Part shown: positions 3,074 to 64,000 of the stretch, piece after piece
Numbering within the stretch: the first letter of the stretch is position 1
Layout of the letters: every line of letters starts with the position of its first letter
Source: Deltaproteobacteria bacterium RIFCSPHIGHO2_02_FULL_44_16
GTDB taxonomy: Bacteria > UBA10199 > 2-02-FULL-44-16
Length of the DNA: 64,000 bases
Assembly (NCBI GenBank): GCA_001798185.1
Contig: MGRM01000006.1
Coordinates: 28,976-92,975, forward strand
Reading direction: 5' to 3'
Notes under the pieces: generated by a model
Seen by the model: the letters and a program-made list of their open reading frames with translations, nothing else
Databases searched by the model: none
Told to the model about the DNA's origin: nothing
Made by a program: the position numbers and the translations under genes

Positions 3074-3080
3074 GATCTGC

Positions 3081-6792: not shown

Positions 6793-7109
6793 GGTACAAC
6801 GTAAAACGATGTTTCATTATCAGTACAGTTTTTCTGTTTGTCGGAATTGCAACATTTGCACAGGGAGCACAAAACAAAAGTCTTACAGGGCAAATTAATG
6901 TGAATACTGCATCTCTCGAGCAACTGATGCAACTCCCCGGCATCGGTCAAGCAAAGGCTGAAGCCATTACAAAAGGAAGACCCTACAGCCAGGCTTCTGA
7001 TCTTCTCAATGTCAAAGGCATTGGAGAAAAACTTTTAAGCCAACTCAAACCGTTTGTAGTTGTGACCGGAAATACAACGCTCGCAACATCTTCCACTCCT
7101 ACTCCGTAA
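6789..7109 (+). CDS. comEA: ComEA-family helix-hairpin-helix DNA-binding protein (secreted)
   Basis: Signal peptide, then INVNTASLEQLMQLPGIGQAKAEAI...VKGIGEKLL, the paired HhH motifs typical of ComEA. Confidence 0.8.
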   Translation: MRYNVKRCFIISTVFLFVGIATFAQGAQNKSLTGQINVNTASLEQLMQLPGIGQAKAEAITKGRPYSQASDLLNVKGIGEKLLSQLKPFVVVTGNTTLATSSTPTP

Positions 7110-9958: not shown

Positions 9959-10691
9959 AAATCCATGCCTCCACAAAATGAGTCAGAACTTCTCGCGCTT
10001 TTTTGGCACTATACATGAGTTCGGGAAGTTTGAAGATCTGTTTTGGATCTGCAGCTAAAAACTTCAGAAATGGGAGTGGTTTTGGTCGGCCCGCACTGTC
10101 AAGCGTCCCCTCAACTGCAGGCAATTCACATTCAAGAGGATCAAAAACAGAACGGACAACACAGGCAGGAATGTCATATTGAAGCGTTAACTGGAGAAGA
10201 GAAAAACTTTCCATATCGACCGCAATGGCGCTCTCCGAAGTTCCAAGAAAAGCTTTTTCGTGTTGACGGCGAACCACGTGAGGACTGGTCACAATTTTTC
10301 CTTGTCGATAGCGAAAACGATGTTCTTCACAAAGCGACACAGCTTTTTTTACCTGCAACGCATCGAGAACGATCTCTTCTCCTTTTGGAAGAACACTGAT
10401 GGTGTCAGCAATCACCAAATCCCCAACATTCAGTTCTGGATCGGTTGCCCCGCAAAAGCCGATTCCAAGAAGAAATCCGGGATGATAACGTTCAAAAAAC
10501 ATCGGAAGCGCTTTTTCGACTCGATGAGATCCCACACCACTTCGCACTAAAACCACATCATGTTCACCCATCCGTCCTTCAATGAATTGGCACGACTCGT
10601 CATCGTGAGAAATTTCAATTTGCATCTTCTCCCGAAGCGATCGAATCTCCTCTTCAAGTGCGCCCACAATGGCAAAGGCAACTTTCTGCAT
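9942..10691 (-). CDS. purine nucleosidase family protein (MTA/SAH nucleosidase Pfs/MtnN-like or futalosine hydrolase-like)
   Basis: IVGALEEEI, SGVG, VGDLVIAD and VDMES blocks match the MTA/SAH nucleosidase family layout. Confidence 0.65.
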   Translation of the reverse strand: MQKVAFAIVGALEEEIRSLREKMQIEISHDDESCQFIEGRMGEHDVVLVRSGVGSHRVEKALPMFFERYHPGFLLGIGFCGATDPELNVGDLVIADTISVLPKGEEIVLDALQVKKAVSLCEEHRFRYRQGKIVTSPHVVRRQHEKAFLGTSESAIAVDMESFSLLQLTLQYDIPACVVRSVFDPLECELPAVEGTLDSAGRPKPLPFLKFLAADPKQIFKLPELMYSAKKAREVLTHFVEAWIYAKPT

Positions 10692-13361: not shown

Positions 13362-13507
13362 CCAAAACTGATTCACATTTTCTCTCGGGGTACAGACGCT
13401 GCGGTTACGCTCCTCGCGTCTTCTGTTTCCATCGGCGCGATCTTTTAAATTTGCATCGACGCGCCTCAGTCAAAGGCCCCCTGCGAAAAAATCTTCACCA
13501 GTTTTGG
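13362..13507 (+). repeat. intergenic repeat element, family 1, copy A (~146 nt; closing stem CCAAAACTG...CAGTTTTGG)
   Basis: About 90% identical to 35378-35496. Internal ACAGA(C/A)GC...GTCTTCTGT hairpin. Copy A has an internal insertion of about 27 nt. Confidence 0.6.
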
Positions 13508-13547
13508 TAAAGATAACAATTAAAACTTACTTACAAGGAGGAGAAGG

Positions 13548-14527: not shown

Positions 14528-14722
14528 TCATAAAAAATCAGGCCGCCAGCTTGGCCATTTCAGCACACACCGCTCTAAAATCGTCGCCGAGCACGCAATC
14601 TTTATATCGAAATCCCAAAGCTCACCTTAAATTTCTCTTGCGACTTCCAATAAAATATGAGTAAATTTCGCTCTATCACAAAAAACTCATGTGTTTTTTA
14701 CGATAAGGATTAAAAAATACAT

Positions 14723-15859
14723 ATGGAAAGATATATTAAACAAGGTGTTTTCAAGGATTTAAACAGAAAAATGGTTTTTGTCGGTGGTCCACGGCAAGTG
14801 GGAAAAACAACCTTTGCAAAGAACCTCTTAGAAACCTGGCCAGATCAACTCTCTTCAACCGTGCAACGTTATTATAGTTGGGATGATGATCGTGATCGCG
14901 AATTTTTGCTCGCTAAACAGCTCCCTTTTTCTCCTGGTCCAGTCATCCTCGATGAACTGCACAAATATCAAAGATGGCGTTGGCTTCTCAAAGCACTGTA
15001 TGACAAGCGGGGAAATGAGTTGCAGATTTTAGTGACGGGGAGTGCAAAGCTTGATTATTACCGACGAGGGGGCGATTCTCTTCAGGGACGATATCATTAT
15101 TACCGCCTCCATCCCCTTTCGCTCAAAGAACTCTCTTCGCAAACAACATCATCGCTTCGCGATCTGTTGATGTATGGCGGATTTCCCGAACCTTTCTTTT
15201 CAGCTTCAGAAACAGAAACGAGACGTTGGAGCCGAGAATACCGGTCTCGTGTCCTGCGCGAAGAGCTTCGAGACCTTGAAAAAGTGAATGATATTTCGCT
15301 GATCGAACGGATGGCGATACGCTTGCCGACGCTTGTTGGAAATCCTCTTTCACTCAATGCTCTGAGAGAGGATTTGCAAGTGTCGCATCAAACCGTCGTA
15401 CGCTGGATGAATATGCTCGAACGACTCTACAGTATTTTTCGCATTTATCCCTTCGGAGCTCCCCATATTCGCGCCGTAAAAAAAGAAGCAAAACACTACC
15501 ACTTTGATTGGGCACAAATTCCGGAAACAGGATTTCGTTTTGAAAATATGATCGCCTGTCACCTTTTGAAATGGTGCCATTTTTTTGAAGATACCGAAGG
15601 ATGGGACATGGATCTTCGATATTTTCGAGATACGGATAAACGAGAAGTCGATTTTGTAGTGCTCAAAGAACGAACACCGATCCTTTTTGTGGAGTGTAAA
15701 ATATCTTTTCAGGAAGCAAGCGGTCATTTGAAGTATCTCTCCAGAAAGTTTCCCGGTGTCGAGGCTGTGCAGATTCACTTCGACGGGGACGAAGATATCA
15801 AAACGGATGAGGGTATTCGACTTTGTCCAGCAGCAACATTTTTGAAGCGCTTTGTTTGA
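14723..15859 (+). CDS. ATPase, AAA+ superfamily (AAA_14/DUF4143-type)
   Basis: Walker A GGPRQVGKTT and Walker B ILDELH. Paralogue of 37072-38238. Confidence 0.75.
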   Translation: MERYIKQGVFKDLNRKMVFVGGPRQVGKTTFAKNLLETWPDQLSSTVQRYYSWDDDRDREFLLAKQLPFSPGPVILDELHKYQRWRWLLKALYDKRGNELQILVTGSAKLDYYRRGGDSLQGRYHYYRLHPLSLKELSSQTTSSLRDLLMYGGFPEPFFSASETETRRWSREYRSRVLREELRDLEKVNDISLIERMAIRLPTLVGNPLSLNALREDLQVSHQTVVRWMNMLERLYSIFRIYPFGAPHIRAVKKEAKHYHFDWAQIPETGFRFENMIACHLLKWCHFFEDTEGWDMDLRYFRDTDKREVDFVVLKERTPILFVECKISFQEASGHLKYLSRKFPGVEAVQIHFDGDEDIKTDEGIRLCPAATFLKRFV

Positions 15860-16640: not shown

Positions 16641-16821
16641 TCTCGAATCATAATCGACCCTCTCTTAAAATAGTTGCTCCTTTTATCTTCTCGAGAAGAC
16701 TGATTTCAAAAAGATTCCAACAAGTTAGATGAAAAAAAGATTTTTAAAATGATTCTTGAAGAGAGAACGAATCTGCATCATATTCTGCGCAACTTCTTGG
16801 ACGCAATCACGATAAACGGAT

Positions 16822-17283
16822 ATGGCTGATAAAGTTCAAAATACAGTCATCATCGCAACAACCCTTCCTCCTCGTCAGGAACCAATATCAATCGAGGTTC
16901 CCAATGCCTTTACAGGAGAGCTCCAACAACAACCAACTCCTGAACAATGTCTTCAAATTTGTCAAAATGCTCTGGCGCAAATAAAAAAATTACGACTTCC
17001 AAATACTCCACCAGGGAAACTTCTCTCGCTTCCAGCTTTTGAAGCTTTGAGTTTTCCCGAGATACCAGTCGTACTAACGCCAGAGGATTTTTATGAATGC
17101 TTGCGCGGTCACCCCCAATTTACTCAGATCAATACATCTACTCAGGCCAATGTAGCAGATACTTCAGCACAGATTTGCTTTGGAATCAGTAAGGTACCCG
17201 AACCTCGGGAACCTGATCTCTTCCCTTTGAAAGATTTGCCCATAAGAGAAGTGCATCCGGAAAGAAAAAAAGAGGGAAAATGA
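16822..17283 (+). CDS. hypothetical Pro/Gln-rich protein, overlaps the subtilase start by 4 nt
   Basis: ATGA overlap with 17280. Confidence 0.3.
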   Translation: MADKVQNTVIIATTLPPRQEPISIEVPNAFTGELQQQPTPEQCLQICQNALAQIKKLRLPNTPPGKLLSLPAFEALSFPEIPVVLTPEDFYECLRGHPQFTQINTSTQANVADTSAQICFGISKVPEPREPDLFPLKDLPIREVHPERKKEGK

Positions 17284-20200
17284 TTTCACACTTGTTTCAA
17301 AAACTGAGTCTTTATTTTTTCCTCCTCTTCTCCATCTCATGCGGATCAGGATTGATGTTTGACGAGGAACAAAATCCTGAAGTAGTTGAAGATATCTCTT
17401 CTGCAGCTGACGAACCTGTCTCCATGACGGCAAAAGACATGATTCCCTCAACGGAGGCAGATTTCTCCCTCAACACGGTCATCGGCATTGAAACCTCCAA
17501 TCGTTTTTTGGCGGTTGCCCTCAAGCTTGAGGCAACGGATCAAGATTTTAGAGAAATCCAGACAAGCGTCCCTGAGTGTCGTGTGGGAGGCATGGTTCCT
17601 CTGGCAAAAATATTTCAGCTCGATTGCCAGTCGATCGTAGGCAACTTTGAGCAACTGAAAACAATACGCGATCGACTTGCGTCTCATCCAAAAATTTTAG
17701 CTGCAGCATTTGATTCAAGGGTTCATGGGAACTCTCTTCCTCCACATCCTCCAACGGTCTACCGAAACTGGAAAGATCCAAGTGGCCCAACATGGGGGCT
17801 TCGGGCCATCGGTGCTCCGCAAGCTTGGAGTCTCAATAATCAACTCAAAAAATTGAACCGCCCTCTGACGGAAGTCATGGTCATCGATATCGGCTTTTAT
17901 CCTCATCCCGATCTTCTTCATCTTACTTCCATCGGAACTTCTGTTACGGAAACGTGTCCCCATCCTGCCGGCGCATCAGGTCTCGATAGGTGCGAGCATG
18001 GAACACTTGTCAGTGGGATCATTGGAGCGAATTGGGAGAACAAAAAAGATGTGGTGGGAGTCAGTCCTTTTGTCAACGTGCAGGCAGCGGACATAAGTTT
18101 GTTTGATGATCCAAATGCTTCAATAGGAGATTTTAGTGCTCCAAGCTTTCTTGACGTGGCCTCTGCAATTTCTGTTATTCATATCCTTCCATCCCGCCCT
18201 CGGATTGTAAATATGTCCATCAGCGATTTTCCCGATTGGAATACTTCCTGTTTTACCGTTCCAGGTTCTTCTCGCAAAGCTCGCTGTGACCCGCGCTTCA
18301 TCAATCGCGTTCAGGATGGTGATGCCTGTGATCCGCATCTGGTGGAACAGGAGATACAAAGTAAGGCAAACATATTTGCACAAGTTATTGATCAATTGAA
18401 CTTTAACTCTCCCAAAACTTTTTTTGTGGTTTCAGCTGGAAACGAATCGGGAATCGACTTTGCGCCAACCGAAATTTACTGTTCCGCTCAATGCGTCTCG
18501 GGAGGATCATGCCTCAAAAAAGGACTTGGCAATTTTCCTGCGGATTTGAATTCCTCCTTTACGAATGCCTTAATTCATCTTCCTGCAGGACAACATGGAA
18601 TCGTGGTGGAGGCGCTTCAACCACTACGAAATCGATCTGCCTACAGTAATGTTGATAGCGGCGGTGTCTTTGCTCCAGCTGATGAAATCGCAAGCCTTGG
18701 GAAGAGTGGCAATACTTTCACTACTGTCATTCGTCCCTATGGCGGAACGTCGAGCGCCGCTCCTCACGTCAGTGGAGCAGCTGCCTTTTTGCTCGCAATT
18801 GAACCTGAGTTAAAGAATCAGGATATCAAGATTCTTTTAAAACAAAATATTGGAGGATTTTCCTGCGCCACAGCTCTTTCTCAAGCTGGAACATCGACCG
18901 CCACCATGGTCAATCTCTTCAAAGCTTCGCACTGCATTGATCTTCTTCTTCGTTTTCAAAATCCTACCGGCCGTCTCAGTGTTGGAGAGATGTATGCAGA
19001 TGTCAGCGATGGAAGTGCTGATGGAAATGAAATCATTCCTCTTGATGACAACAGCTCTCCCATTTCCAACCGTTATCATGTTCCGACCTGGGGTGATGAT
19101 GTCATTTCCATTCGCGACTTTCGTGTCTTGCGTGATCATCTTCTGCTTCATGAAGATGTTTCTTATCAATCTTCTGCGCAGGTTGTTGCCGCTCTTGCCG
19201 CCCAGAGCGATCGCCTTGATCTGAATGAAGATCTTGAAATCATCGATCTCACTTTTAATCCCGATGGAGAAAACTACTCACGCGCTGATTTTAATGGAGA
19301 CGGGAAAATCAGCAGTTCAGCAACAACCTCTTTTGCGGGAAATCAACTCACTGATCTCGATGTTTTTCTTTTAAGTTACCGAAAAAATAGGGGCTATCAA
19401 AACGATCTTCCGTCATGGCCACCTGATGCTCTTGCGGGACTTTTGAAATCAGCAGATATCTGGATACGTCCGGATAGAGGTGTTGGAGATCTTGAAATCG
19501 AAATACAAGGAGATAGGGGAGTGATAGAGCCTGCTGATGTAAGTCCGCTCCGAGGAATTCGCATTCCATCGGGAACAACTGAGGCTGTTCTCACCACTCC
19601 AAGGCTTCTGAATCCAAAACTGCTTGTCACACAAGATTGTGATGATGTCCCGCGTCAAACAACGTATGAAATAGCACTGAATGATCTTGCACCTGGAGAA
19701 GACAGAGTCGTTCCGATTCCCACAAAAAACTGCAGCCGCTGGACGAGAAGGCGTGATGCCCCGAGCGGTAATCCGCGGTCTGTGGCCGTCGATTACAACG
19801 GCGGTGCTCAGACCATCAACATGGAAGAGCATCAATTCTTCCCCCCTTCCGGTTCATTTCCTGCCTTTGATGTTCTTTGGGACACCGACATCGATTGCGC
19901 TGCCAATACCTATACGAAAGTTGAATATGTCAATGGTCGGCCGAATAATCGACACTTTTTTTCGAACTACAGTCCCGGATGTCCCGTGCCTGATCTCCCC
20001 GGACTTCAGAGGGCCAATACCTTTAACGTTCACATAAGCTGCGACGGAGGATTTCAGAATAATCTCACTTTCACTCAGGATGACGGACAAAGCTATTCGT
20101 ATACTTTGCCCAATGGGGTAAGCGAAACCTATCAGTGCATCGGGTGCCAACAACCCGACCTCTCACAAGCCTGTCACTGCGATCCCTCGCTTGCTGTGGG

Positions 20201-27166: not shown

Positions 27167-30100
27167 CTATGGAAGGACAGTCGTTGGTTCAGACGCACTC
27201 GCCTGGTATGTATTCATTGGATCTACTAACCCCACAGAATCCCAGATATAGCTCGTGGTGTAGAGCCTGTTGGTTGTCGTCCCACTTGGGATTAAAGTCT
27301 CGTGCACCACATAAAGTGCTGTGTTTGGTTGCAGAACAACACTTGAGGTCATGTCAATCAACTGCAATCCAGCAGTACTATCATTGACCGTGTAATCACT
27401 CCCCGCTGTAAGAAGCACTGCTGTTGGGCTTGATGCATCCGATACAATGGAACCCGTGGCTGGATCTCTCACAGGAGCTGTGTCGAGATAAATTCTCGTC
27501 GAGACTGCTTGGAAGAGACCAGGAATTCCTAAAACAGTCGGACTCACAAGACCGAAACTATACTTCAGTCTATTCGAATTCACTCCCTCGTTGGAGAGTG
27601 ATTCAACATAAAGTACCGAGAAATACGTAACGTTACTGTTCACCGCAATCGGATCACTGAGATCAACAAGTTGGGTTTGAAGTGCCGAGAAGGCCGGGAC
27701 ATTGACACAATCCGAAGCCTGCACGCTCGCAGCATTGCTGCTCGTAACCGTTGCTGTATCGCAGTAAATTCCACTTGCTGCGCCAAACGGGATGCGGCTT
27801 ACCACAATAAAGGTCAAACTCTCTCCTGCGAGAACATTCATAGTGCTAGGAGACGTAACAACATTTCCGGAAAGCGCGCCGACCGCACCGTTCAAATTCG
27901 AACTCACGTAAATAACCTGCACATTGGCAGCAGAATTCAAACCGAGAACATCGCTGATGACAACGTTTTGAGCAGGAGCACTGCCGCTATTTTGCACGAC
28001 GATCGTTGATGTATAGCTGGCACTTGGGATCACACTTTCTGGAGCGTTGACTTTTGTAATCTCAAGATTTGGCGTCGCTACGGTCAAACACGCGATATCG
28101 CTGCCAATCCCGATGGTCCCGGAAGTAGCCGAAAGGCTCGCAGTGTCACAATATATCCCATCAACTGATGCTTGAACTGTAAAGAGCATGGTCGATGTGG
28201 ATCCTGCAGCAAGATCGCCGATGTTGTTGTCAAAACCATCGCTGCTATTGAGCGTTCCGCTTGAAATACTGTTTATCTGGAATGGGGCCATGTCGCCGCT
28301 TGTAAGTTCATCGTGAACCATGACACCTGTCGCAGAGCCTGTACCACTGTTGATCACTCGCACGCGGAGTCTTGCAGGCATATTGGCTGATACAGTCATC
28401 GACTCGCCAAGACTCGTCACATCATCAGCAGCAACAAAGTCTTTGATGATCGATACATTTGATTCGAGAGCAGTAAAGCATGCCTCTGCACTCAGATCGA
28501 CTGGAGCCCACGAATTGTCACTATCACGATACAAAAGAATCTGCGATTTGTTGCAGTAAGTTCCGGGCGCTGTGACCGTGGCGGTGAAGGTGAGAATCTG
28601 CGTATTGTCCCCAGCAGGGGCAAGTTGAGATGGAAGCGCAAAGGAATATGTGAAACCATCACCGACTGCAGTACTCCCTGCAGGACGTGAGTTAAGCGAG
28701 TAACTTGCTTCTGCGCCTGATGACAAGATGTCACTCAGATCGATGTTGGTGGCGTCACCATTGCCAACGTTCTGAATTGTAACCGTCCAGGTGGCTGAAG
28801 CCACACCTCCAACGAGGTGCACGATATCCGAGTTAACGGTCTTCGTAATCTCGAGTTCCGGTGCTGGTGCAAATTTCTTGTAGAAGATCTGTTTTCCAAT
28901 CTCTTCTCCGTTGATAGTCGCTACAGCTGTAATGCGAGCTTCTGATCTTGCATCCGGTGAAAAGAGAGTCACCCAAGTGAAGCCATCGACAAATGGAGTA
29001 CCAATGCCGCTCTGGTTGTAGAGTGGGTATTCAGTTCCGATAAGAGGGAATCGTTCTGCGGTCAGTCGAGCATTATTCGTGCGCGTATCGGCCTGGTCAT
29101 CGAAAATTCCGTACCCAAGCGCGACTCTGTTATCATCAGATGTACCAAACTGCATGCTGTTGACTCTTCCAAACCACCACTGATCGATCTCCCAGCGGAC
29201 ATCGGCACCAATCACTGGACGAACAACCCCTGTGGAATCTGTGAAACCAACCCATGCGACAGCAAGATTCTGGGTAAAACTCGGAGCAGTTTCCATCTGC
29301 TCGATGGCCAAAGGTCTTCCGGGGTCACTCACCATGGAGGAAGTCAAATTGGCGGGAACAATCCCGTTTGGTTTATCTTGCTCCCAAGCGTAAAATACAA
29401 ATCGACCAGACTGGAGCGTGCTCGAGTCGATCGGAATAAGATTTCCCTGATCGTTGCGGTAGACTGCGCGCGGCGCCTCGGAGATAATTGGCGTTGCGAT
29501 GAGGACTAACGAAAGACTCGATGTATTGCCGGCAACAACATTGATTTGACCAACCGCATCGCCGAAAGCAGGCGCGGTTGCTGTCGCAACATACTGACCC
29601 GGCGCTAAATCGATGAGAAGCTGGTTACCGGTAAAAGTCTGTGTGAAACCATCTGGTCCTGTCACAACCACCGTAGCCGATGATGGATAGACGTTGATAT
29701 TGAGAGAACCGACTGTAGATTCCGAAACTCCCGCACTCATAGCAAGAGAGGTCGACGCAAGGATTAATGAAATACTCGAGATCTGACCAGCAGCGACATT
29801 GATTTGACCAACTGCATCACTGAAAGCAGGCGCGGTTGCTGTCACTCCATACAGGCCTGGAACTAAATTGGTGAAAAGCTGGTTCCCGGTAAAAGTCTGT
29901 GTGAAACTCTCTGGCCCTGTCATCACCACCGTGGCTGATGTCGGATGAACATTGACTTGAAGAGAACCAACTGCAGTGGCCGTTCCGAGAGAACCGACCG
30001 CCGAAGTTGTCGTTCCGAGAGGATCGCCCGGAGTTGTCGTTGCTCCTCCGCACCCCAAAAACGTCATGGCGCATATGAGCCCCACGATGAACCCTCTCAT
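27167..30100 (-). CDS. large surface lipoprotein with tandem Ig-like repeats and DUF11/CARDB-like domains
   Basis: Lipobox FLGCGG. Two 86-aa tandem repeats (SLQVNVHPTSATVV... and SLNINVYPSSATVV...). DUF11-like segments (TWTVTIQNVGNGDATN). Confidence 0.7.
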   Translation of the reverse strand: MRGFIVGLICAMTFLGCGGATTTPGDPLGTTTSAVGSLGTATAVGSLQVNVHPTSATVVMTGPESFTQTFTGNQLFTNLVPGLYGVTATAPAFSDAVGQINVAAGQISSISLILASTSLAMSAGVSESTVGSLNINVYPSSATVVVTGPDGFTQTFTGNQLLIDLAPGQYVATATAPAFGDAVGQINVVAGNTSSLSLVLIATPIISEAPRAVYRNDQGNLIPIDSSTLQSGRFVFYAWEQDKPNGIVPANLTSSMVSDPGRPLAIEQMETAPSFTQNLAVAWVGFTDSTGVVRPVIGADVRWEIDQWWFGRVNSMQFGTSDDNRVALGYGIFDDQADTRTNNARLTAERFPLIGTEYPLYNQSGIGTPFVDGFTWVTLFSPDARSEARITAVATINGEEIGKQIFYKKFAPAPELEITKTVNSDIVHLVGGVASATWTVTIQNVGNGDATNIDLSDILSSGAEASYSLNSRPAGSTAVGDGFTYSFALPSQLAPAGDNTQILTFTATVTAPGTYCNKSQILLYRDSDNSWAPVDLSAEACFTALESNVSIIKDFVAADDVTSLGESMTVSANMPARLRVRVINSGTGSATGVMVHDELTSGDMAPFQINSISSGTLNSSDGFDNNIGDLAAGSTSTMLFTVQASVDGIYCDTASLSATSGTIGIGSDIACLTVATPNLEITKVNAPESVIPSASYTSTIVVQNSGSAPAQNVVISDVLGLNSAANVQVIYVSSNLNGAVGALSGNVVTSPSTMNVLAGESLTFIVVSRIPFGAASGIYCDTATVTSSNAASVQASDCVNVPAFSALQTQLVDLSDPIAVNSNVTYFSVLYVESLSNEGVNSNRLKYSFGLVSPTVLGIPGLFQAVSTRIYLDTAPVRDPATGSIVSDASSPTAVLLTAGSDYTVNDSTAGLQLIDMTSSVVLQPNTALYVVHETLIPSGTTTNRLYTTSYIWDSVGLVDPMNTYQASASEPTTVLP
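29480..29995 (-). repeat. intragenic tandem repeat, 2 x 258 nt (~85% identity)
   Basis: cattgatttgacca... begins at 29539 and again at 29797; it encodes the duplicated Ig-like module. Confidence 0.6.
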
Positions 30101-30300
30101 AGTTCGCCCTCTATCTCTTCTCCATCTTCGTGATCTACTTTCATATTGCAACTGCGTATGTGTGTGGTTCTTCATTTTTGTTCTCCTTAGTTTCTGGTTG
30201 CTTTCATGGAGGGAGATTATGAAAGCATTGAAGGATGAACAATCGGGAGGAACTACATTTTTTACTGGGGAATTTCTCTACCAGAAAAGATGGAGGACAA

Positions 30301-35377: not shown

Positions 35378-35496
35378 CAAACTGGTTCACATTTTCTCTC
35401 GGGGTACAGAAGCTGCGGTTATGCTCCTCGCGTCTTCTGTTTCCATCGACGCGCCTCAGTCAAAGGCCCCCTGCGAGAAAAACTTCACCAGTTTGG
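35378..35496 (+). repeat. intergenic repeat element, family 1, copy B (~119 nt; closing stem CAAACTGG...CCAGTTTG)
   Basis: About 90% identical to 13362-13507. Lies between rpe and fmt, antisense to both. Confidence 0.6.
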
Positions 35497-35502
35497 TCAT
35501 AG

Positions 35503-36429
35503 TTATCCTAATTTTGTCCCCGATTTTATCTCATGCCCACGTAAAAACTCGATGGTCGACATTCTCTTTTTTCCTTCGAGCTGCACTTCAAGCAGATACA
35601 GATCCCCTGCTCCCGTTGCAACTGCAAGTTCATTCCCAACATGAAGCACCGTTCCTGGCTCCATCTCCAACTGGCTCTCAACAACTGCAACTTCATGAAG
35701 TTGTAATCGCTTTCCTCCCCAAAAGGTAAAGGCCCCTGGCCACGGCGTAAATGCGCGAACTCGATTGTAAATTTCTTCTGCGGAAAGCGTCCAATCGATC
35801 TTCCCATCTTCTTTGTTGAGGATCGGCGCAGAGGTTGCTTCGCTATGATGCTGCGGTTTCCTTGGAGCTGCGCCCTTTTCTATGGCCTCGACTGTTTTCT
35901 GGAGAAGTTCAGCGCCGAAGATCGCCAGTCGATCGTGCAAGTCTGACGCTTTTTCACACGCATCAATTTCCGTACGGCTGGAATAAATAATATCGCCCGC
36001 ATCCATCTCTTCGCTTAAATACATTGTCGTCACGCCTGTCTCTGTCTCCCCATTCGCAATCGCCCAATGAATCGGAGCTGCCCCGCGATATTTGGGCAGA
36101 AGCGATGCGTGTACATTAATGCACCCTTTTGGAGGAATGGCTAAAATCTCTTTGGGAAGAATTTTTCCGTACGCCACAACGACAAAAAGATCAGCATGCA
36201 AACTTTTGAAATGTTCCTCTACTTTTTTTGACCGAAGCGTCTTTGGCTTCAGGGGTTGGCGTCCCTTTTCTTGGATAAGGACGGCAACAGGGCATGGAGT
36301 CAATTCATAGCCTCTTCCTGCCGGTTTATCCGGTTGCGTGACGATTCCGACAACATCATGCGATGACTCGAGAAGCGCTACAAGAGAAGGGACGGCAAAA
36401 ACTGAGGAACCCATAAAGAGGATTTTCAT
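35503..36429 (-). CDS. fmt: methionyl-tRNA formyltransferase
   Basis: MKILFMGSSVFAVPSL...VVTQPDKPAGRG N-terminus; 4-nt overlap with def. Confidence 0.9.
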   Translation of the reverse strand: MKILFMGSSVFAVPSLVALLESSHDVVGIVTQPDKPAGRGYELTPCPVAVLIQEKGRQPLKPKTLRSKKVEEHFKSLHADLFVVVAYGKILPKEILAIPPKGCINVHASLLPKYRGAAPIHWAIANGETETGVTTMYLSEEMDAGDIIYSSRTEIDACEKASDLHDRLAIFGAELLQKTVEAIEKGAAPRKPQHHSEATSAPILNKEDGKIDWTLSAEEIYNRVRAFTPWPGAFTFWGGKRLQLHEVAVVESQLEMEPGTVLHVGNELAVATGAGDLYLLEVQLEGKKRMSTIEFLRGHEIKSGTKLG

Positions 36430-37071: not shown

Positions 37072-38238
37072 ATGTTCAAACGCAAACTCCACATCGAACT
37101 GCCTCCTCACCAGTCCACTTTTTTGTGGGGAGCTCGTCAAACCGGAAAATCAACCTATCTGACTAAACATTTTCCTCATTCACTTCGATATGATTTTCTT
37201 CAATCAGATCTCTATTTGACGTTCCTCAAAGAACCTCATCGGTTACGGGAAGAACTGATTGAAAAACCGGCTTCGCTTTTACGATATCCAATTATTCTGG
37301 ATGAAGTCCAAAAAATTCCTCTTCTTCTTGATGAGGTCCACTGGCTCATTGAAAACAAAAAATTGAGTTTCATTTTGTGTGGATCAAGCGCTCGAAAATT
37401 GAAACGAGAAAAAGCGAACCTCTTGGGAGGGCGCGCCTGGCGCTTTGAAATGCACCCTCTTGTCTTTCCCGAAATCCCAAACCTTGATCTTCTGCGAGCC
37501 TTGAACCAAGGCCTTTTACCAACTCACTATACAACAGATTACCCTGAAAGATCGCTCAAAGCCTATGTCACAGATTATTTGACAGAAGAAATCAAGGCCG
37601 AGGGACTTAGCCGCAATCTTGCAGCCTTTGCCAAATTTTTGGAGGCGGCTGCTTTCTCTCACGGTCAATTGGTTGAATATAAAAATATTGCGAGCGACTG
37701 TGGCGTCGATGCCAAAACCGTGAAAGAATATTTTGAAATTTTAAAAGATACCTATATTGCCTCTTTTCTCGCACCGCTTCCAAAGAAGAAGGATCGAAAA
37801 ACTATCACGGCAACTCCAAAATTTTATTTTTTTGATCCTGGTATTGCAAATTTTTTAACAAAAACGCCGTTGCTTCAACTCAAAGGAACTCAGGCGGGGA
37901 CAAGTTTTGAGAGTTATCTCTTCCATGAAATTCAGACATATCGTGCCTACTCCGAAAAAAATTTCGAACTCCACTATTGGCGTACAACAGCAGGCCACGA
38001 AGTGGATTTTGTGATCAACGAAGATGAAATTTATATCGAAGCAAAAATTTCAGAAAACATAAAACTTGCAGACCTTGTTGGATTAAGAAATCTGATGCAT
38101 CAAACTCCCGCAAAAAAAGCGTATGTCGTCTCACAAGAAAAAAGACCGCGCCTCCTCACAACTCCTGAAGGGGCAAAAATTCATATTCTTCCCTGGAAAC
38201 ACTTTCTCGAAGCTCTCTGGAACGAAGATATTGTTTAA
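37072..38238 (+). CDS. ATPase, AAA+ superfamily (AAA_14/DUF4143-type), paralogue
   Basis: Walker A GARQTGKST and Walker B ILDEVQ. Same architecture as 14723-15859. Confidence 0.75.
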   Translation: MFKRKLHIELPPHQSTFLWGARQTGKSTYLTKHFPHSLRYDFLQSDLYLTFLKEPHRLREELIEKPASLLRYPIILDEVQKIPLLLDEVHWLIENKKLSFILCGSSARKLKREKANLLGGRAWRFEMHPLVFPEIPNLDLLRALNQGLLPTHYTTDYPERSLKAYVTDYLTEEIKAEGLSRNLAAFAKFLEAAAFSHGQLVEYKNIASDCGVDAKTVKEYFEILKDTYIASFLAPLPKKKDRKTITATPKFYFFDPGIANFLTKTPLLQLKGTQAGTSFESYLFHEIQTYRAYSEKNFELHYWRTTAGHEVDFVINEDEIYIEAKISENIKLADLVGLRNLMHQTPAKKAYVVSQEKRPRLLTTPEGAKIHILPWKHFLEALWNEDIV

Positions 38239-40826: not shown

Positions 40827-41756
40827 ATGGCAAGCATTGGATCGGTCGGTTTGTGGATTTGGTTTACTGTTTTTATTCTCATTCTTTTAGCGCTCGACCT
40901 CGGTTTTTTTCACCGCGAAGCCAAAGAAGTTCGCGTTCGCGAAGCGCTTCTCTGGAGTCTGATCTGGATTTCGCTCGCTCTTCTTTTTAATGCCTTTATT
41001 TATTTCTGGTTTGGACCGCGACCTGCTCTTGAATTTTTGACAGGCTACATCATTGAAAAATCTCTTTCCGTCGATAACCTTTTTGTTTTTATCGTTCTCT
41101 TTTCTTATTTTTGCGTTCCCAAAAATCTTCATCATCGCGTTCTTTTCTGGGGAATTCTCGCAGCACTTGTCATGCGTGCTGGGTTTATTGCGATGGGAGC
41201 AGCGTTGGTTCATTCGTTCGGATGGATGCTCTATCTCTTCGGTGCGTTTCTTGTTTTCACCGGCATCAAACTCTTCTTTCAAGATGAGATCGAAGTCCAC
41301 CCTGAGCGAAACTGGATCGTCAAACTCTATCAACGCTTTGTTCCTGCGGTCAGCTCTTATCATGAACATCACTTTATGATTTTGAAAGATGGAAAATGGT
41401 TTGCAACTCCTCTTCTGTTAGTGCTTGTCGTCATCAATATTACCGATATCATTTTTGCCGTTGATTCCATTCCGGCTATTTTCGCCATCACCACCGATCC
41501 TTTTATTGTTTATACCTCGAATATTTTTGCAATCTTAGGGCTTCGTGCCCTCTACTTTTTACTGGCGGGCATGATTGGGAAATTTCATTATCTGAAAATT
41601 GGTCTCGCGATTGTCCTCATTTTTATCGGAACCAAAATGTTGATCGTTAAATGGTTCCCCATTCCAATTGTCTATTCTCTTCTTTTTGTCGTCTCAGTCA
41701 TTGCTCTTTCCATTCTGGTTTCTCTGTTAAAACCGAAAAAAGAATTGAATCTTTAA
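40827..41756 (+). CDS. TerC-family integral membrane protein
   Basis: EKSLSVDNLFVF and later DSIPAIFAIT blocks; about 8 TM helices. Confidence 0.8.
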   Translation: MASIGSVGLWIWFTVFILILLALDLGFFHREAKEVRVREALLWSLIWISLALLFNAFIYFWFGPRPALEFLTGYIIEKSLSVDNLFVFIVLFSYFCVPKNLHHRVLFWGILAALVMRAGFIAMGAALVHSFGWMLYLFGAFLVFTGIKLFFQDEIEVHPERNWIVKLYQRFVPAVSSYHEHHFMILKDGKWFATPLLLVLVVINITDIIFAVDSIPAIFAITTDPFIVYTSNIFAILGLRALYFLLAGMIGKFHYLKIGLAIVLIFIGTKMLIVKWFPIPIVYSLLFVVSVIALSILVSLLKPKKELNL

Positions 41757-41767
41757 AAGAAACTATC

Positions 41768-41892
41768 TTCAAAACTGACAAATAATTCGGGTGGCTCCGA
41801 CGCCGGATCCCAGGGGCGCCCCACCCACGATTTATGGGTGGGGAGGTGGAACGGCGGAGGTGACAGGACCCGTGCCAGCGAACGTTTTGAAA
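41768..41892 (+). ncRNA. candidate structured RNA or 5' leader element, family 2, copy A (~125 nt)
   Basis: TTCAAAAC...GTTTTGAA closing stem; conserved core ATTCGGGTGGCTCCGACGCCGGATCCCAGGGG...GAGGTGGAACGGCGGAGG(T/C)GACAGGACCCGT; variable hairpin CCCCACCCA-cgatttat-GGGTGGGG. Upstream of gdhA. Confidence 0.45.
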
Positions 41893-41943
41893 TAGTTTCT
41901 TAAACGCCTCCGAGAAACTTTTTAGCTTTTCTCTTGAAGAATC

Positions 41944-43314
41944 GTGCAAGACGACATACACCCGCCGCATCAATATAGAGGAGAGAGATCCATGGGTTCC
42001 CCAAAACCACCATCACTGAAAAAAGCCTTAAAAAAACGAAACCTCGACATGGGACTTCAATCAACCACCGCATTTGAAAATGCGATGACCCAGTTTGACG
42101 ATGCTGCCGGTATTTTAAAATTGAGTAAGGACCAAATCGCACTGATTAAACAACCGCGTCGCATTGTGGAAACGAAACTGACCGTCCGCATGGACGATGG
42201 TCATATCGAAGTCTTCACTGCCTACCGTGTTCAACACAATATTGCGCGCGGCCCTGCAAAAGGTGGCGTTCGATTTCATCCCGATGTCTCACTTGACGAA
42301 GTCAAAGCCCTCGCTTTCTGGATGACGGTCAAATGCGCTGTGGTGAATATTCCCATGGGTGGTGCAAAAGGAGGCGTCATCGTCGATCCGACCAAACTCT
42401 CTTACGGCGAACGCGAACGTCTCTCTCGACTTTACTTTACAGAAATGATCGACATGTTTGGTCCTGATCGCGACATTCCTGCTCCTGATGTGGGGACAGA
42501 CGCGCAAGTGATGGCGTGGTTTTTGGATGCTTATTCTCATCATCATGGAAATTATGTTCCTGCCGTGGTCACCGGAAAGCCCATTGAACTTGGTGGATCA
42601 CATGGCCGGGTTCAGGCAACAGCTCAGGGGATGATTTACTGTTTGCACGAGGCAGCTGAGATCCTCAATTTCTCGATACCCGGCACAACCGTTGCCATTC
42701 AAGGATTTGGCAATGCTGGCTCAAATGCGGCAATCCTTCTTCATGCAGCCGGCGCAAAAGTGGTCGCTATCTCCGATATGTCTGGAGCTTTTTATAATCC
42801 TGACGGCCTCGACATTCCTGCAGCGCTTGCCCATGTCAAAGAGAAACACAAACTGAAAGGCATTGAGAAGACCATGAAGTGTACGTTGATGGATGATCCC
42901 ATGGAGCTTCTCTTTCTCCCTGTCGATATTTTGATTCCCGCAGCCCTCGAAAATCAGATCGTCTCGAGAAATGCGGATAAGGTACAGGCAAAAATTGTGG
43001 CCGAATGCGCGAATGGACCCGTTTCTCAGAAGGCCACCAAAATTCTGGAAGAAAAAGGAATTTTCATCATTCCTGATATTCTCTGTAATGCCGGAGGAGT
43101 CACCGTTTCCTATCTGGAGTGGGTGCAAAACAGACTCGGATATTATTGGACCAAAGATCGTATTCAAAAAGAACTGCGTCGCTATATGGTCGATGCGTTT
43201 ACTACGATTCACAAAGCGTCTCAGGAATATAAAGTCGGTATGCGACTCGCTGCTTACATCGTCGCTCTCGATCGTGTCTTGACAGCTTCAGAGCTGCGTG
43301 GGTTGTACGGATAA
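41944..43314 (+). CDS. gdhA: NAD(P)-specific glutamate dehydrogenase
   Basis: GGAKGGV catalytic Lys region and GFGNAG dinucleotide-binding motif. True start may be the ATG at about 41992. Confidence 0.9.
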   Translation: MQDDIHPPHQYRGERSMGSPKPPSLKKALKKRNLDMGLQSTTAFENAMTQFDDAAGILKLSKDQIALIKQPRRIVETKLTVRMDDGHIEVFTAYRVQHNIARGPAKGGVRFHPDVSLDEVKALAFWMTVKCAVVNIPMGGAKGGVIVDPTKLSYGERERLSRLYFTEMIDMFGPDRDIPAPDVGTDAQVMAWFLDAYSHHHGNYVPAVVTGKPIELGGSHGRVQATAQGMIYCLHEAAEILNFSIPGTTVAIQGFGNAGSNAAILLHAAGAKVVAISDMSGAFYNPDGLDIPAALAHVKEKHKLKGIEKTMKCTLMDDPMELLFLPVDILIPAALENQIVSRNADKVQAKIVAECANGPVSQKATKILEEKGIFIIPDILCNAGGVTVSYLEWVQNRLGYYWTKDRIQKELRRYMVDAFTTIHKASQEYKVGMRLAAYIVALDRVLTASELRGLYG

Positions 43315-44033
43315 TGCCTATTGAGAAAATAAACACCCAGCTTCTTGGTCTTCCGCCTGCGTGGATGAGCCGTGCGGTCCAGCGCGGCGGAGAGATGGGG
43401 AACTCCGAGGCTATCAAGAAACTCCTCGGTGAACCAATTCCCCAACTGGTGGATCCGAAAAATCTGACTCCACACATCGCTCAATTTTTCCGACGCAATG
43501 GGACCCTTGAAAGAATCCGAAAAAAACTAGCGCTTATCTCCAGAAAAAAGGGGGGCGCCTTTATTCCAGCTCGTGGCACGATTGCGTCTGTCGATGAAGA
43601 CGACAATATTTATGTCGGCGTCGATTTTCTCGAACAGTTTGGCGATGACGAAAATCTCCTCGCTGCAATTCTTGCTCATGAATGGGGTCACATGATGAGC
43701 GATCGGCGCAAAGTCGACTGGTCCCATGTCACGATTGACGAACTCTTCGCCATTCGTCGCGACGAAGAGGCCGAAGCTGACGCTTTTTCCGGGCGCGCAC
43801 TTTTTCTTCTCGGATATTCTCCTGATTCGATGATTCATCTTTTGGAAACACTTCGAAATCAAAAGAAAAAACGAAAATTTGAATCACGGAAATATCATAA
43901 CACCGCAACACGCATCGAAATTTTTCGACAATCTTATAATGCCGTCAAACGAGCACTCGAAGTCGCTCGCCGCCTCTTCTTTAGTTCAGGACACACAGCG
44001 CCAAAGATGGGTCAAATTATTGGGGAAGGTTAA
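43314..44033 (+). CDS. putative zinc metallopeptidase (HEXXH motif), coupled to gdhA
   Basis: AAILAHEWGHMM followed by EAEAD. TAATG overlap with the gdhA stop. Confidence 0.45.
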   Translation: MPIEKINTQLLGLPPAWMSRAVQRGGEMGNSEAIKKLLGEPIPQLVDPKNLTPHIAQFFRRNGTLERIRKKLALISRKKGGAFIPARGTIASVDEDDNIYVGVDFLEQFGDDENLLAAILAHEWGHMMSDRRKVDWSHVTIDELFAIRRDEEAEADAFSGRALFLLGYSPDSMIHLLETLRNQKKKRKFESRKYHNTATRIEIFRQSYNAVKRALEVARRLFFSSGHTAPKMGQIIGEG

Positions 44034-44049
44034 CACTTGGAAAATGCAT

Positions 44050-44165
44050 TTCAAAACTGACAAATGATTCGGGTGGCTCCGACGCCGGATCCCAGGGGTG
44101 CCCCGCGTCAGCGGGGAGGTGGAACGGCGGAGGCGACAGGACCCGTATCAGCAAATGTTTTGAAA
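44050..44165 (+). ncRNA. candidate structured RNA or 5' leader element, family 2, copy B (~116 nt)
   Basis: Same ends and core as 41768-41892, but the variable hairpin is CCCCGC-gtca-GCGGGG (compensatory change). Upstream of the rpiB-like gene. Confidence 0.45.
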
Positions 44166-44184
44166 TGCGTTTTTCAAAAGGATA

Positions 44185-44613
44185 ATGATGAAAATCATCG
44201 TCGCAAGTGATAAAAAAACCGCCTTAACGGATATGGTGATCAAAACACTTCATCAGAAGAACCATGAGGTCATCTTGGCAGGAGATTTGGTCAAAAAAAA
44301 TGGGAAATGGGCTGAAATTGCAATCGATGCCGCTCAGCACGTTGTCAGCGGTGAAGCTGATCAGGGCATTTTTTTCTGTTGGAGTGGAACAGGGATTTGT
44401 ATTGCCGCAAATAAAGTGAAGGGTGCACGAGCAGCCCTCTGTTCAGACCCAGAAACAGCGCAGATGGCACGTAAATGGAATGACGCCAATATTCTCTGCT
44501 TAAGTCTCCGCGCAACATCAGAAGCAACAGCAATAAGCATTCTCGATGCCTGGTTTTCAACAAAATTTGATGAAGAGGGTTTAGAGCAAGCACATATGGT
44601 AGATCGTTGGTAA
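44185..44613 (+). CDS. RpiB/LacA/LacB-family sugar-phosphate isomerase
   Basis: MKIIVASD...GIFFCWSGTGICIAANK is typical of RpiB. Confidence 0.7.
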   Translation: MMKIIVASDKKTALTDMVIKTLHQKNHEVILAGDLVKKNGKWAEIAIDAAQHVVSGEADQGIFFCWSGTGICIAANKVKGARAALCSDPETAQMARKWNDANILCLSLRATSEATAISILDAWFSTKFDEEGLEQAHMVDRW

Positions 44614-59507: not shown

Positions 59508-59628
59508 AAGATCCTCACGATGTACATATCAACGGCTGCTTCGGCCAAATTTTCTCGGGCCGCTCCACTGTGGGACAACCCACAGTGTTCGCTTAACTCT
59601 CGGCAATTTTATTGTCAAACCCCGGTTG

Positions 59629-60426
59629 TTAAAATTGCCTCGAGATACCCTGCGAAACTTTATCCTCGCGCGCCGTTGATAAAGAACGAAGTTTTTTTAG
59701 AGATAAGCGCACTTTCAAAATCGCCAAAGAACCTATCAGCATTTCACGCAAAGACATTTTTGATCTTCCTTGTTGTCGATCAGGAAACACGACCGGAAGT
59801 TCTCGTATACGATATCCTTCTCGGGAAAAAAGGTAGATCAATAACGTGTGACCCACAAATCCAGGTCCCATACGGAGCATGATCTCCTCAAGAGGAAATC
59901 GCCGCAAGTCGTCAACGCGATACATTTTAAAATTATTTGTAAAATCTGACGTGAAACGACCAAAAAGGAGCGTCACGTACATGCGCGAAAGGAAATGAAG
60001 AAAGTGTCGCTGCCAGTTCCAACCTCTCACACCTCCTCCACGAAGATGCCTGGAACCGATAATCACATCGACCTTTTCCTCTGAAGCCAGTTTTAGAAAA
60101 CGTGGGATATCATGCGGATCATGTGAAAAATCGGCGTCCATGGTGAGCACCCATTCATAACCATGTGAGAACGCATAATGAAAACCGGCAAGGATCGCAC
60201 CTGCAAGTCCCCCATCGCGTTTTCGAAAAAAGGGTTTCAGATGAGAGTATTGTTTCGTAAGTTCAATAATTTTTTCCCGCGTTCCATCAGTGGAACCATC
60301 ATCGACCACCAGAATATCAATATCCGGGAGCAAGTGATAAATCTTCTCCACCAGAGGAACGATGTTGTCGCTCTCATTAAAAGTGGGAATGCAAATGAGC
60401 ACTTTCCTCTGTTCAGTTTGTCTCAT
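59629..60426 (-). CDS. GT2-family glycosyltransferase (polyprenyl-phosphate sugar synthase, DPM1/ArnC-like)
   Basis: VLICIPTFNESDNI...VVDDGSTDGT...MDADFSHDP motifs. Confidence 0.8.
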   Translation of the reverse strand: MRQTEQRKVLICIPTFNESDNIVPLVEKIYHLLPDIDILVVDDGSTDGTREKIIELTKQYSHLKPFFRKRDGGLAGAILAGFHYAFSHGYEWVLTMDADFSHDPHDIPRFLKLASEEKVDVIIGSRHLRGGGVRGWNWQRHFLHFLSRMYVTLLFGRFTSDFTNNFKMYRVDDLRRFPLEEIMLRMGPGFVGHTLLIYLFSREGYRIRELPVVFPDRQQGRSKMSLREMLIGSLAILKVRLSLKKLRSLSTAREDKVSQGISRQF

Positions 60427-62161: not shown

Positions 62162-64000
62162 ATGTTTTCTTCCACCAATCTCTTCCGTCTTCTCCAACAG
62201 AAAAAATATCACTCCTATGAGGAACTCTATCAGTGGTCGATCACTGAGCGCGGTTCATTTTGGGAAACGATGATCCAGCTCTTGGGAATTCGATTCCAAA
62301 AAAAATATACAAGCATTCTCGATCTCTCGGACGGCATTGAATCTCCGCACTGGCTTGTCGGTGCGAAACTCAATATTGCCGAAAGTTGTTTTCAAGCAGA
62401 TCCACAAAGCACGGCAATTCTTTTTCAAAAAGAAAATACTCCTCTTCAAACCATAACGTATGCAGAGCTGAATGAACGGAGTGATGGTATTGCTTTTGGC
62501 CTCACTTCGTTAGGATTTCTAAAAGGAGATCGCATTGCAATCGACATGCCGATGACGGCTGACGCTGTTTCGATTTATCTTGGAATCATCAAAGCAGGAA
62601 TGTGTGTGGTCTCGATTGCTGATAGTTTTGCTTCACACGAAATCAAAACACGTTTACAGATTGCAGAAGCCAAAGCCATTTTCACGCAAGATGTCATCGA
62701 GCGCAGCGGAAAAGAATTTCCTCTTTATCAAAAAGTCATTGATGCCGATGCTCCGATGGCCATTGTAATTCCGTGCTCAGAAAAACTTTCGACTTCTCTT
62801 CGCAAACAAGATGTTTCATGGCTTGATTTCAAAAGTAGATGTAGCATGCCGTTGCGATCTGATTTCAAAACCAGATTTAGTGCGTCGCTGTGCAGCCCAT
62901 TGTCAGCACCAACCGGAGCGCGCAATGGGCAAGCAGACAGACGCACGAAGTCAGGTTTTGAAGTAGTGAGATGTAATCCTGAGGACGAAACAAACATCCT
63001 CTTCTCATCTGGCACCACCGGAGAACCGAAAGCCATCCCTTGGACGCACACCACTCCGATCAAATGCGCAAGCGACGGCTATCTCCACCACGACATTCAA
63101 CCAGACGATGTTGTCGCATGGCCGACCAACTTAGGGTGGATGATGGGTCCGTGGCTCATCTATGCAACGCTCATCAACAAAGGGGCTATCGCCCTTTTCG
63201 ATGGTTCGCCAACATCCCGAGAGTTTTGTCATTTTGTGGAGAAAACAAAAGTAACGATGCTTGGAGTTGTTCCCAGCATTGTCAAAGCTTGGAGAGAAAA
63301 TGGAAGTGCCGCAGGCATCGATTGGAGTTCCATCAAATGTTTCAGTTCTACCGGGGAATGCTCCAATGCCGATGATTATGCATGGCTCATGGCTCAAGCG
63401 GGCAATCGTCCCATCATTGAATACTGTGGAGGGACAGAAATTGGAGGTGGCTATTTGACGGGAACACTGCTGCAACCAGCCATCCCTGCAACCTTTACAA
63501 CGCCAGCGCTCGGCATCGATTTTGTGATCTTAGATGAAGAGGGAAAACCGACAAACAACGGTGAAGTTTTTTTGATTCCTCCATCGATCGGCCTCTCGAC
63601 AAAACTTCTGAATCAGGATCATCACAAAGTATATTTTGCAGATACCCCGCAAGGGGCGCAGGGGCGGCGGCATGGTGATCAGATCGAAAAACTTCCGAAC
63701 GGTTATTATCGTGCGCACGGACGCGCTGATGACACGATGAACCTCGGAGGGATCAAAGTCAGCTCTGCTGAGATCGAACGAGTCCTCAATCGGGTTGATG
63801 GTATTCAAGAAACTGCGGCGATCGCCGTTTCCCCTAAGGATGGAGGTCCAAGTCTTTTGGTGATTTATGTTGTTATAAAGGCTTCATTCCCGCAAAAACG
63901 AGAATCTCACGTAAATACGGGAGATCCCCGCATGCGCGAGGGTGACATTCCGTTTCTTAAAGAGTGCATGCAACGTGCCATCAAAGAAAACTTAAATCCA
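62162..64000 (+). CDS. AMP-dependent synthetase/ligase (acetyl-CoA-synthetase-like), 3' end outside the window
   Basis: Manual translation gives MFSSTNLF...YEELYQWSITERGSFWE (ACAS_N-like) and the LFSSGTTGEPK AMP-binding motif near 63000. No stop codon before the window end. Confidence 0.75.
   Translation, partial: MFSSTNLFRLLQQKKYHSYEELYQWSITERGSFWETMIQLLGIRFQKKYTSILDLSDGIESPHWLVGAKLNIAESCFQADPQSTAILFQKENTPLQTITYAELNERSDGIAFGLTSLGFLKGDRIAIDMPMTADAVSIYLGIIKAGMCVVSIADSFASHEIKTRLQIAEAKAIFTQDVIERSGKEFPLYQKVIDADAPMAIVIPCSEKLSTSLRKQDVSWLDFKSRCSMPLRSDFKTRFSASLCSPLSAPTGARNGQADRRTKSGFEVVRCNPEDETNILFSSGTTGEPKAIPWTHTTPIKCASDGYLHHDIQPDDVVAWPTNLGWMMGPWLIYATLINKGAIALFDGSPTSREFCHFVEKTKVTMLGVVPSIVKAWRENGSAAGIDWSSIKCFSSTGECSNADDYAWLMAQAGNRPIIEYCGGTEIGGGYLTGTLLQPAIPATFTTPALGIDFVILDEEGKPTNNGEVFLIPPSIGLSTKLLNQDHHKVYFADTPQGAQGRRHGDQIEKLPNGYYRAHGRADDTMNLGGIKVSSAEIERVLNRVDGIQETAAIAVSPKDGGPSLLVIYVVIKASFPQKRESHVNTGDPRMREGDIPFLKECMQRAIKENLNP

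Follow-up and report, generated by a model that had tools for sequence, protein, structure and literature searches.

Hairpins beside gdhA and rpiB in an uncultured deltaproteobacterial lineage probably belong to a dispersed family of palindromic repeats

Two GC-rich hairpins lie in a 64,000-nucleotide stretch of contig MGRM01000006.1 of Deltaproteobacteria bacterium RIFCSPHIGHO2_02_FULL_44_16 (this whole stretch is called the window below), one of them (copy A) upstream of the glutamate dehydrogenase gene gdhA and the other (copy B) upstream of the isomerase gene rpiB. Are they leaders that control these two genes, as the initial annotation mainly supposed, or copies of something that has spread through the genome? 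[quoted passage not shown] We read them in this way because 15 copies are found in ~150 kb of one population in unrelated gene contexts, and because the copies in coding genes are in frame, the orientation is mixed and both strands fold equally well. The hairpins would then neither sense a ligand nor regulate gdhA or rpiB specifically, which removes a false riboswitch candidate. The family is new and without a database match, while its kind is already known; what is unusual is the conserved centre with free but mirrored ends, the docking on stop codons and the RPE-like in-frame insertions in a free-living uncultured lineage.

A family of paralogous copies in one population

The ~150 kb of contigs that we examined belong to the same population as the window (Rifle metagenome-assembled genome, MAG, 'Deltaproteobacteria bacterium RIFCSP..._02_FULL_44_10/16'). 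The window is 100% identical to a wastewater contig from ENA across the 21.3 kb fetched, the fetched loci are 99.75-100% identical between samples (≤0.25% difference), and the window proteins are identical or ≥90% identical to those of the Rifle aquifer MAGs RIFCSPLOWO2_02_FULL_44_10 / RIFCSPHIGHO2_02_FULL_44_16. Therefore all the copies beyond the window are paralogues in contigs of one population and not orthologues of different species. The JGI loci had been considered as coming from distant species, with the nearest MnmE only ~53% identical; this was dropped, as a cluster look-up showed that they and the window come from one population.

Copies C, D and E came from a metagenome scan with a 22-mer of the core, a five-copy covariance model led to further copies, including those of a diverged subfamily, and more contigs were reached by protein-space searches with the translated element. 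The 15 distinct copies (A-O) score 92-161 bits with a 14-copy model and are 141-155 nt long, copy I being cut by a contig end. They are found beside or inside gap/pgk, opp, mnmE, rarA, mutY and bacA and the genes of an MMPL transporter and a DUF3187 protein (Table 1), eight in sense orientation, three antisense and three between convergent genes. Short intergenic gaps are occupied, in many cases all the way from one gene's stop codon to within a few bases of the start of the next; in B, F, G and O only 1-11 nt separate the hairpin from the downstream start codon. In the window, the start of copy A falls on the TerC-family stop codon, and copy B begins 4 nt past the stop of a 239-aa open reading frame (ORF) and ends ~7 nt short of the rpiB ATG (44185), filling the 151-nt gap between this stop and the ATG. 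The proposed placement directly 5' of genes is thus one-sided, since the copies sit equally 3' of genes, while the structured repeat that the initial annotation had allowed as an alternative is supported by the dispersed copies.

There is no third copy in the window, either in a repeat scan or in a whole-window covariance-model search with filters off. A marginal model match (16.9 bits, E = 0.47, outer stem only) in an intergenic region of 27% G+C at 16692-16762, ATTTCAAAAAG...TTTTTAAAATGA, could be chance or a remnant. Outside this population, an exact 20-mer scan of 185,579 species-representative genomes returned only two chance matches, in the GC-rich Streptomyces and Minicystis, so either the MAG is not in the species-representative set or the family is absent elsewhere. 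The family was not found in viral contigs, plasmids or phages. A search of 5.8 billion proteins with a sense-frame peptide profile, together with an exhaustive one of 1.84 billion representatives, recovered only three ORFs of 47-48 aa (P0122-P0124), all on ENA contigs of one sample series, P0122 being the ORF called on copy B of the window. A six-frame concatenated peptide query still recovered the rarA copy, with a sensitivity that was poor, probably owing to the glycine linkers.

Repeats of this type fragment metagenome assemblies and lead to too many gene calls. Contigs L006 and L008 begin inside copy A, which is the assembly behaviour expected of a repeat. Gene callers place spurious ORFs of 47-48 aa on some copies (44061-44207 on copy B, with equivalents in contigs L003, L007, L019 and L020). 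Differences between strains that are otherwise 99.9-100% identical concentrate in the copies, as a 13-nt deletion and three single-nucleotide polymorphisms (window 41843-41855, in copy A, against L005; 41845 against L004; L015 11531 against L017; L022 9908 against L025). These could reflect hypermutability or an artefact of metagenome assembly at repeats and are not used as evidence.

Conserved box and core, mirrored arms

In each unit a ~19-bp closing stem (a mirrored outer arm plus the box) encloses an AU-rich internal loop, then a conserved GC-rich core, and finally an apical hairpin, which comes in at least two types. The two window copies have in common, as had been recognised initially, the 8-bp boxes TTCAAAAC and GTTTTGAA and a GC-rich core, in which a 28-nt and a 33-nt string occur twice each in the window (0 expected from 100 shuffles); the boxes lie where they had been placed, and only the end coordinates of the elements were one base too long. 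The 8-bp closing stem then described for a ~120-nt hairpin is also real, although pairing continues for ~10 bp more beyond the box (AAGAAACTAT/ATAGTTTCTT in A, GAAAATGCAT/ATGCGTTTTTC in B), which makes the units larger (41757-41901 and 44040-44175). The apical hairpins, CCCCACCCA-CGATTTA-TGGGTGGGG in A and CCCCGC-GTCA-GCGGGG in B, are unlike in sequence yet paired, and the compensatory pattern that this had suggested holds on 14 copies. As RNA the copies fold rod-like, A with -61.3 kcal/mol (z = -4.0) and B with -63.5 kcal/mol (z = -5.0), in a window of 44.8% G+C. The opposite strands of A and B fold about equally well as RNA, and the same is true of both strands as single-stranded DNA.

Standard pairs occupy 92.7% of the pair cells in the 14 copies, versus 82.7% in shuffled data and 38-55% with the partners slid. 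Changes on both sides are found in 21 of 39 pairs, a number that none of 500 shuffles reached, and the outer helix, with its 19 pairs, contributes 14 of these 21. The outer arm has the consensus (T)A-R-A-A-n-y-y-A-T followed by the almost invariant TTCAAAAC box: 12-13 of 14 copies have A-R-A-A at positions -9 to -6, counted from the box, -2/-1 are AT, and -5 to -3 are variable but mirrored. Mean pairwise identity in subfamily 1 is 94% in the terminal box, 89% in the GC core, 53% in the outer arms and 45% in the AU-rich internal loops. Box and core are thus constrained in sequence and the closing stem only in pairing. We had considered the outer arms as copy-specific host sequence, arising by insertion into palindromes or by templated duplication of the flank; the idea was dropped in view of the arm consensus (ARAA-nnn-AT) and of an arm divergence equal to that of the internal loops.

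What does the covariation mean? It is real, as the mirrored double changes attest, and it had been taken to argue for selection on RNA structure rather than duplication. That step is unsafe. REPINs carry frequent compensatory changes across the hairpin, with selection acting among transposable copies (PMC3116915), and template switching at quasipalindromes can mirror a mutation from arm to arm without any selection (PMC7202029). Since both routes give the same pattern, the covariation seen here is not by itself proof of a functional RNA, and in general covariation among the paralogous copies of one genome is not enough to call one. The expectation that no known RNA family would match was correct: four copies searched against Rfam 15 on both strands gave no match at the gathering threshold, nor at E ≤10 (window copies) or E ≤5 (copies in L019/L020).

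Copies within coding genes

Only 3 of the 15 copies are coding. The mnmE, rarA and mutY ORFs read through hairpins of 150, 141 and 144 nt, respectively, with the frame kept and no stop codon, so that roughly 40-47 residues are added from an element in either orientation. The peptide predicted to be encoded by the element is VAPTPDPRGAP...GGGTAEVTGP in MnmE and RarA and GRSTSPLARGAPGIRPRRHP in MutY. Preservation of the frame together with the lack of a stop in all three argues that these copies are translated and not removed.

MnmE is a protein of 492 aa, with ~40 extra residues between its G4 (NKCD) and G5 (SAK) motifs. The insert is absent in all 11 aligned homologues, which are only about 50-58% identical to MnmE (the closest ~53-58%). 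The AlphaFold2 model has a mean predicted local distance difference test score (pLDDT) of 81, with residues 347-374 of the insert below 50 and the remainder confidently folded, so the insert is predicted to be a disordered loop. In RarA the insert divides the Pfam AAA_assoc_2 domain into two stretches, and in MutY it sits between the HhH-GPD and NUDIX_4 domains. RPE-like behaviour is thereby documented outside Rickettsia, in one uncultured 'Deltaproteobacteria' lineage of groundwater and wastewater, with palindromes in frame in MnmE, RarA and MutY.

Comparison with known repeats and a possible mechanism

RPEs insert in frame in many unrelated genes (PMC10969869), and they are the closest parallel in behaviour: both they and the present elements are ~100-150-bp palindromes found between genes and in frame within unrelated housekeeping genes, to which they add a peptide while the protein stays intact (PMC10969869). 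The likeness drawn here is one of behaviour. The host here is a free-living 'Deltaproteobacteria' MAG, a minority of the copies is coding, and the part conserved in sequence is the GC core with the 8-bp box, whereas the outer arms are variable but mirrored.

REPINs are also non-autonomous hairpin repeats, predicted to fold in single-stranded DNA or mRNA, in which compensatory changes are common and conserved recognition segments alternate with free but paired ones (PMC3116915). Hairpins with compensatory changes are present here as well, although no REP 16-mer doublet as such was defined. REPINs are strictly extragenic and conserved at two terminal REP 16-mers, in contrast to the present family, which lies partly within ORFs and is conserved centrally. 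REPINs are mobilised by RAYTs (REP-associated tyrosine transposases), whose genes the repeats flank; no RAYT gene was found in the ~150 kb.

MITEs (Correia/NEMIS, ERIC, RUP) share with our elements a small size (<~300 bp), multiple copies, a non-coding nature and terminal inverted repeats, here the box with its ~10-bp mirrored arm. Within operons MITEs are transcribed as stem-loops, which RNase III or RNase E can process (PMC10969869). They differ in that here neither a clear target-site duplication nor, in the sequence examined, a parent insertion sequence (IS) with matching ends was found, and in that the outer inverted-repeat segment varies from copy to copy while being complementary within each.

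How would such an element spread? We suggest DNA-level copying or transposition that would depend on the box and the core and on a single strand able to fold, carried out by a mobilising enzyme, not yet found, that would act in trans. The mirrored changes in the arms could then arise because active copies are selected for a hairpin that can fold, or because one arm is copied from the other by template switching. In transcripts the hairpin probably has side effects on how the mRNA is processed or how stable it is; its ~19-bp stem is similar to substrates of RNase III and may be handled like Correia elements, which are cut by RNase III (PMC10969869). The conservation pattern and the stop codons in the stem make the family a usable system for studying the spread of hairpin repeats and their tolerance by proteins.

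Several observations weigh against a selfish repeat. No empty site or presence/absence polymorphism was seen, and all the near-identical strains carry every copy. There is no clear target-site duplication, and no direct repeats outside the arms in the flanks inspected; in most copies an AT dinucleotide borders the box at each side, but it is itself palindromic and within the stem. Pfam revealed no transposase, RAYT or integrase in the 64-kb window, nor did the gene tables of L003, L015 and L022 contain one; this was also the case for a parent IS with matching ends, and Y1_Tnp had no match in the proteins scanned or tabulated over ~150 kb. Box and core are conserved and arms and loops diverged, while the arms are still 92% paired. 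Such rate heterogeneity implies selection, on each copy or among active copies, since dead copies decaying neutrally would not show it. On the reference strand G-U pairs outnumber A-C mismatches (27 versus 13), and five of the six copies between co-directional genes are sense, both mild hints at a strand-specific and possibly RNA-level constraint. Finally, at 9 of 11 gene 3' ends that adjoin an intergenic copy the stop codon is in the hairpin base or ≤4 nt from it. The stop codon of the flanking gene is often the arm's own TAA, and the placement could come from insertion into the very short spacers of a compact genome, from an arm that supplies the stop, or from a target preference.

Alternative explanations

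Some of these same observations would suit a structured RNA that benefits the host, a kind of 'operon punctuation' kept by selection as a signal for processing, stability or termination, for example an RNase III site or a block to 3' exonucleases. Copies A, B, F, G and O fill junctions from a stop codon to the next start, the arms change only in a mirrored way around a conserved core and box, the G-U excess and the sense bias point to the RNA strand, and Correia and ERIC elements do have RNA-level effects (PMC10969869). Nevertheless we regard this as unlikely. Three copies are coding, one of them antisense, and copies E and G are antisense in the opp operon; a promoter and terminator scan gave no signal tied to the elements, with no T-tract or terminator-like signal after the hairpins; a simple stability hairpin needs no sequence-conserved GC core; and the family is found in one lineage only. 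There is a similarly small chance that this is a hairpin element of a new kind, with a GC core recognised sequence-specifically by a protein or ribonucleoprotein, a stem constrained in pairing only, docking on stop codons and a habit of filling operon junctions. Such an element might have been domesticated as an 'operon punctuation' RNA, or it might be a REPIN-like symbiont mobilised by a non-RAYT enzyme, as yet undiscovered, that regenerates one arm from the other, and, if it were so, the several hairpin-repeat families in this genome would point to shared machinery.

Considerably less probable are paralogous genes for small, independently transcribed RNAs of ~100-140 nt that have a long closing stem and bind a protein via the GC core, in the way of Y RNA or 6S RNA. 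A sequence-constrained core with a pairing-only stem is indeed typical of protein-binding RNAs; against this, the copies abut stop and start codons and leave no room for a promoter, there is no promoter-like excess, copies lie within ORFs and in both orientations, and Rfam has no match.

The initial main reading, a gene-specific riboswitch or leader for gdhA and rpiB, is now very hard to maintain. It had in its favour two sense copies upstream of metabolic genes and a conserved, covarying structure in non-coding DNA that matched no known family, features that riboswitches share. Riboswitches, however, have a fixed association with related genes and lie sense in the 5' untranslated region, whereas here three copies are antisense, three lie between convergent genes and three are coding. 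A check of whether homologues keep their placement and orientation had been proposed, and the answer goes against a riboswitch: the other copies are in unrelated contexts, in both orientations and also in frame within genes. In addition, copy A has its start at the upstream gene's stop codon, the opposite strand folds equally well, and the symmetric rod is not divided into an aptamer and an expression platform such as a terminator.

It is just as improbable that the element is an intron-like or otherwise excised segment of RNA or DNA, leaving the coding copies untranslated: although the outer stem brings the two flanks together in every copy, no ribozyme or intron family matches, and the three coding copies keep the frame without a stop, which would be needless if they were removed (we estimate the probability of this by chance at roughly ≤1%). 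Integron attC sites around gene cassettes, which are likewise imperfect palindromes of similar size between co-directional genes, can practically be set aside, as RYYYAAC ... GTTRRRY, the pattern of attC core sites, is not matched by the boxes TTCAAAAC/GTTTTGAA, Pfam reveals no integrase in the window, and the copies flank core housekeeping genes or lie inside genes.

Features of the locus and other repeats in the genome

The coordinates of the two window copies, of their neighbouring genes and the contexts of the other copies are collected in Table 1.

Table 1. Features around the two window copies, and contexts of the remaining copies. Positions are those of the window unless a contig is named; orientation is that of the element relative to the genes.
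Feature	Positions	Strand	Orientation	Remarks
TerC-family membrane protein gene	40827-41756	+		TAA stop 41754-41756 at the base of copy A
Copy A, whole hairpin	41757-41901	+	sense	TerC to gdhA; covariance-model match 41754/41755-41904/41905, 126.8-139.1 bits
Copy A, left outer arm	41757-41767	+		AAGAAACTAT plus bulged C; pairs with 41892-41901
Copy A, 5' terminal box	41768-41775	+		TTCAAAAC, 8 bp
Copy A, GC-rich core	41788-41872	+		CGGGT to ACCCG, including apical hairpin 41819-41843
Copy A, 3' terminal box	41884-41891	+		GTTTTGAA, 8 bp
Copy A, right outer arm	41892-41901	+		ATAGTTTCTT
Glutamate dehydrogenase gene (gdhA)	41992-43314	+		starts 88 nt 3' of copy A
239-aa ORF	43314-44033	+		weak M48-peptidase motif; stop 44031-44033, then copy B
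Copy B, whole hairpin	44040-44175	+	sense	M48-like ORF to rpiB; covariance-model match 44037-44178, 148.5-161.1 bits
Copy B, left outer arm	44040-44049	+		GAAAATGCAT
Copy B, 5' terminal box	44050-44057	+		TTCAAAAC, 8 bp
Copy B, GC-rich core	44070-44145	+		including short apical hairpin 44101-44116
Copy B, 3' terminal box	44157-44164	+		GTTTTGAA, 8 bp
Copy B, right outer arm	44165-44175	+		ATGCGTTTTTC; one base more than left arm
RpiB/LacAB-family isomerase gene (rpiB)	44185-44613	+		directly 3' of copy B
Copy C				between convergent genes
Copy D	L014 6196-6345		sense	in frame within mnmE
Copy E			antisense	5' end of oppA; oppA start codon inside arm
Copy F			sense	gap to pgk
Copy G			antisense	oppD to oppF
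Copy H				divergent region, 56 nt upstream of MMPL transporter gene
Copy J	L015 10678-10818		sense	in frame within rarA/mgsA
Copy K	L015 13401-13544		antisense	in frame within mutY
Copies L, M				between convergent genes
Copies N, O			sense	between co-directional genes

At least two further families of intergenic hairpin repeats of 115-160 nt and one singleton exist in the same genome; the elements described here therefore fit a repeat-rich genome and not a dedicated regulator of carbon and nitrogen metabolism. One family, unrelated to ours and ~115-140 nt long with inverted ends CCAAACTGR...YCAGTTTGG, is found in the window at 13365-13515 and 35379-35505 and on contig L014 at 6666-6804 (reverse complement, filling the mnmE-mnmG gap) and 10125-10260. 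One of its window copies lies between atpB and atpE, and one copy is without a 24-nt central segment. The other family (X1, ~150 nt, copies 78-82% identical) has members at 5301-5480, where it fills the gap between a PEP-mutase/ICL-family gene and the citrate synthase gene, at 59536-59685 (reverse complement) inside the 905-nt gene-free gap 59508-60412, and on contig L015 at 14589-14742. Rfam offers nothing for X1 at the gathering threshold. Covariation is seen in the stem at its ends, TCAAnnnC...GnnnTTGA (AAAACC/GGTTTT, AACGGC/GCCGTT, AACAGC/GCTGTT). A superfamily with TTCAAAAC ends common to the other repeat families was considered and is weakened by this covariation of the X1 ends, the identity in one copy being partly coincidence. 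The singleton (X2) is a rod-like hairpin at 62851-62975 with a different core, closed by TTCAAAACC...GGTTTTGAA, which folds as RNA with -58 kcal/mol (z = -6.3); a 111-aa ORF without a Pfam match contains it, and elsewhere it has only a weak partial match, in contig L011.

Other features of the window include two of the three paralogous AAA_14 + DUF4143 ATPase genes in the sequence examined, members of a multi-copy gene family (14723-15859 and 37072-38238; the third is on contig L022 at 17054-18280), and a PIN-domain ORF at 3287-3640, just upstream of which unannotated sequence may hold a small gene, an arrangement (3080-3640) that resembles a toxin-antitoxin pair. Two tandem 217-nt repeats, 80% identical and 258 nt apart, lie at 29502-29976 within the gene of a 1002-aa DUF11-repeat protein (27167-30175).

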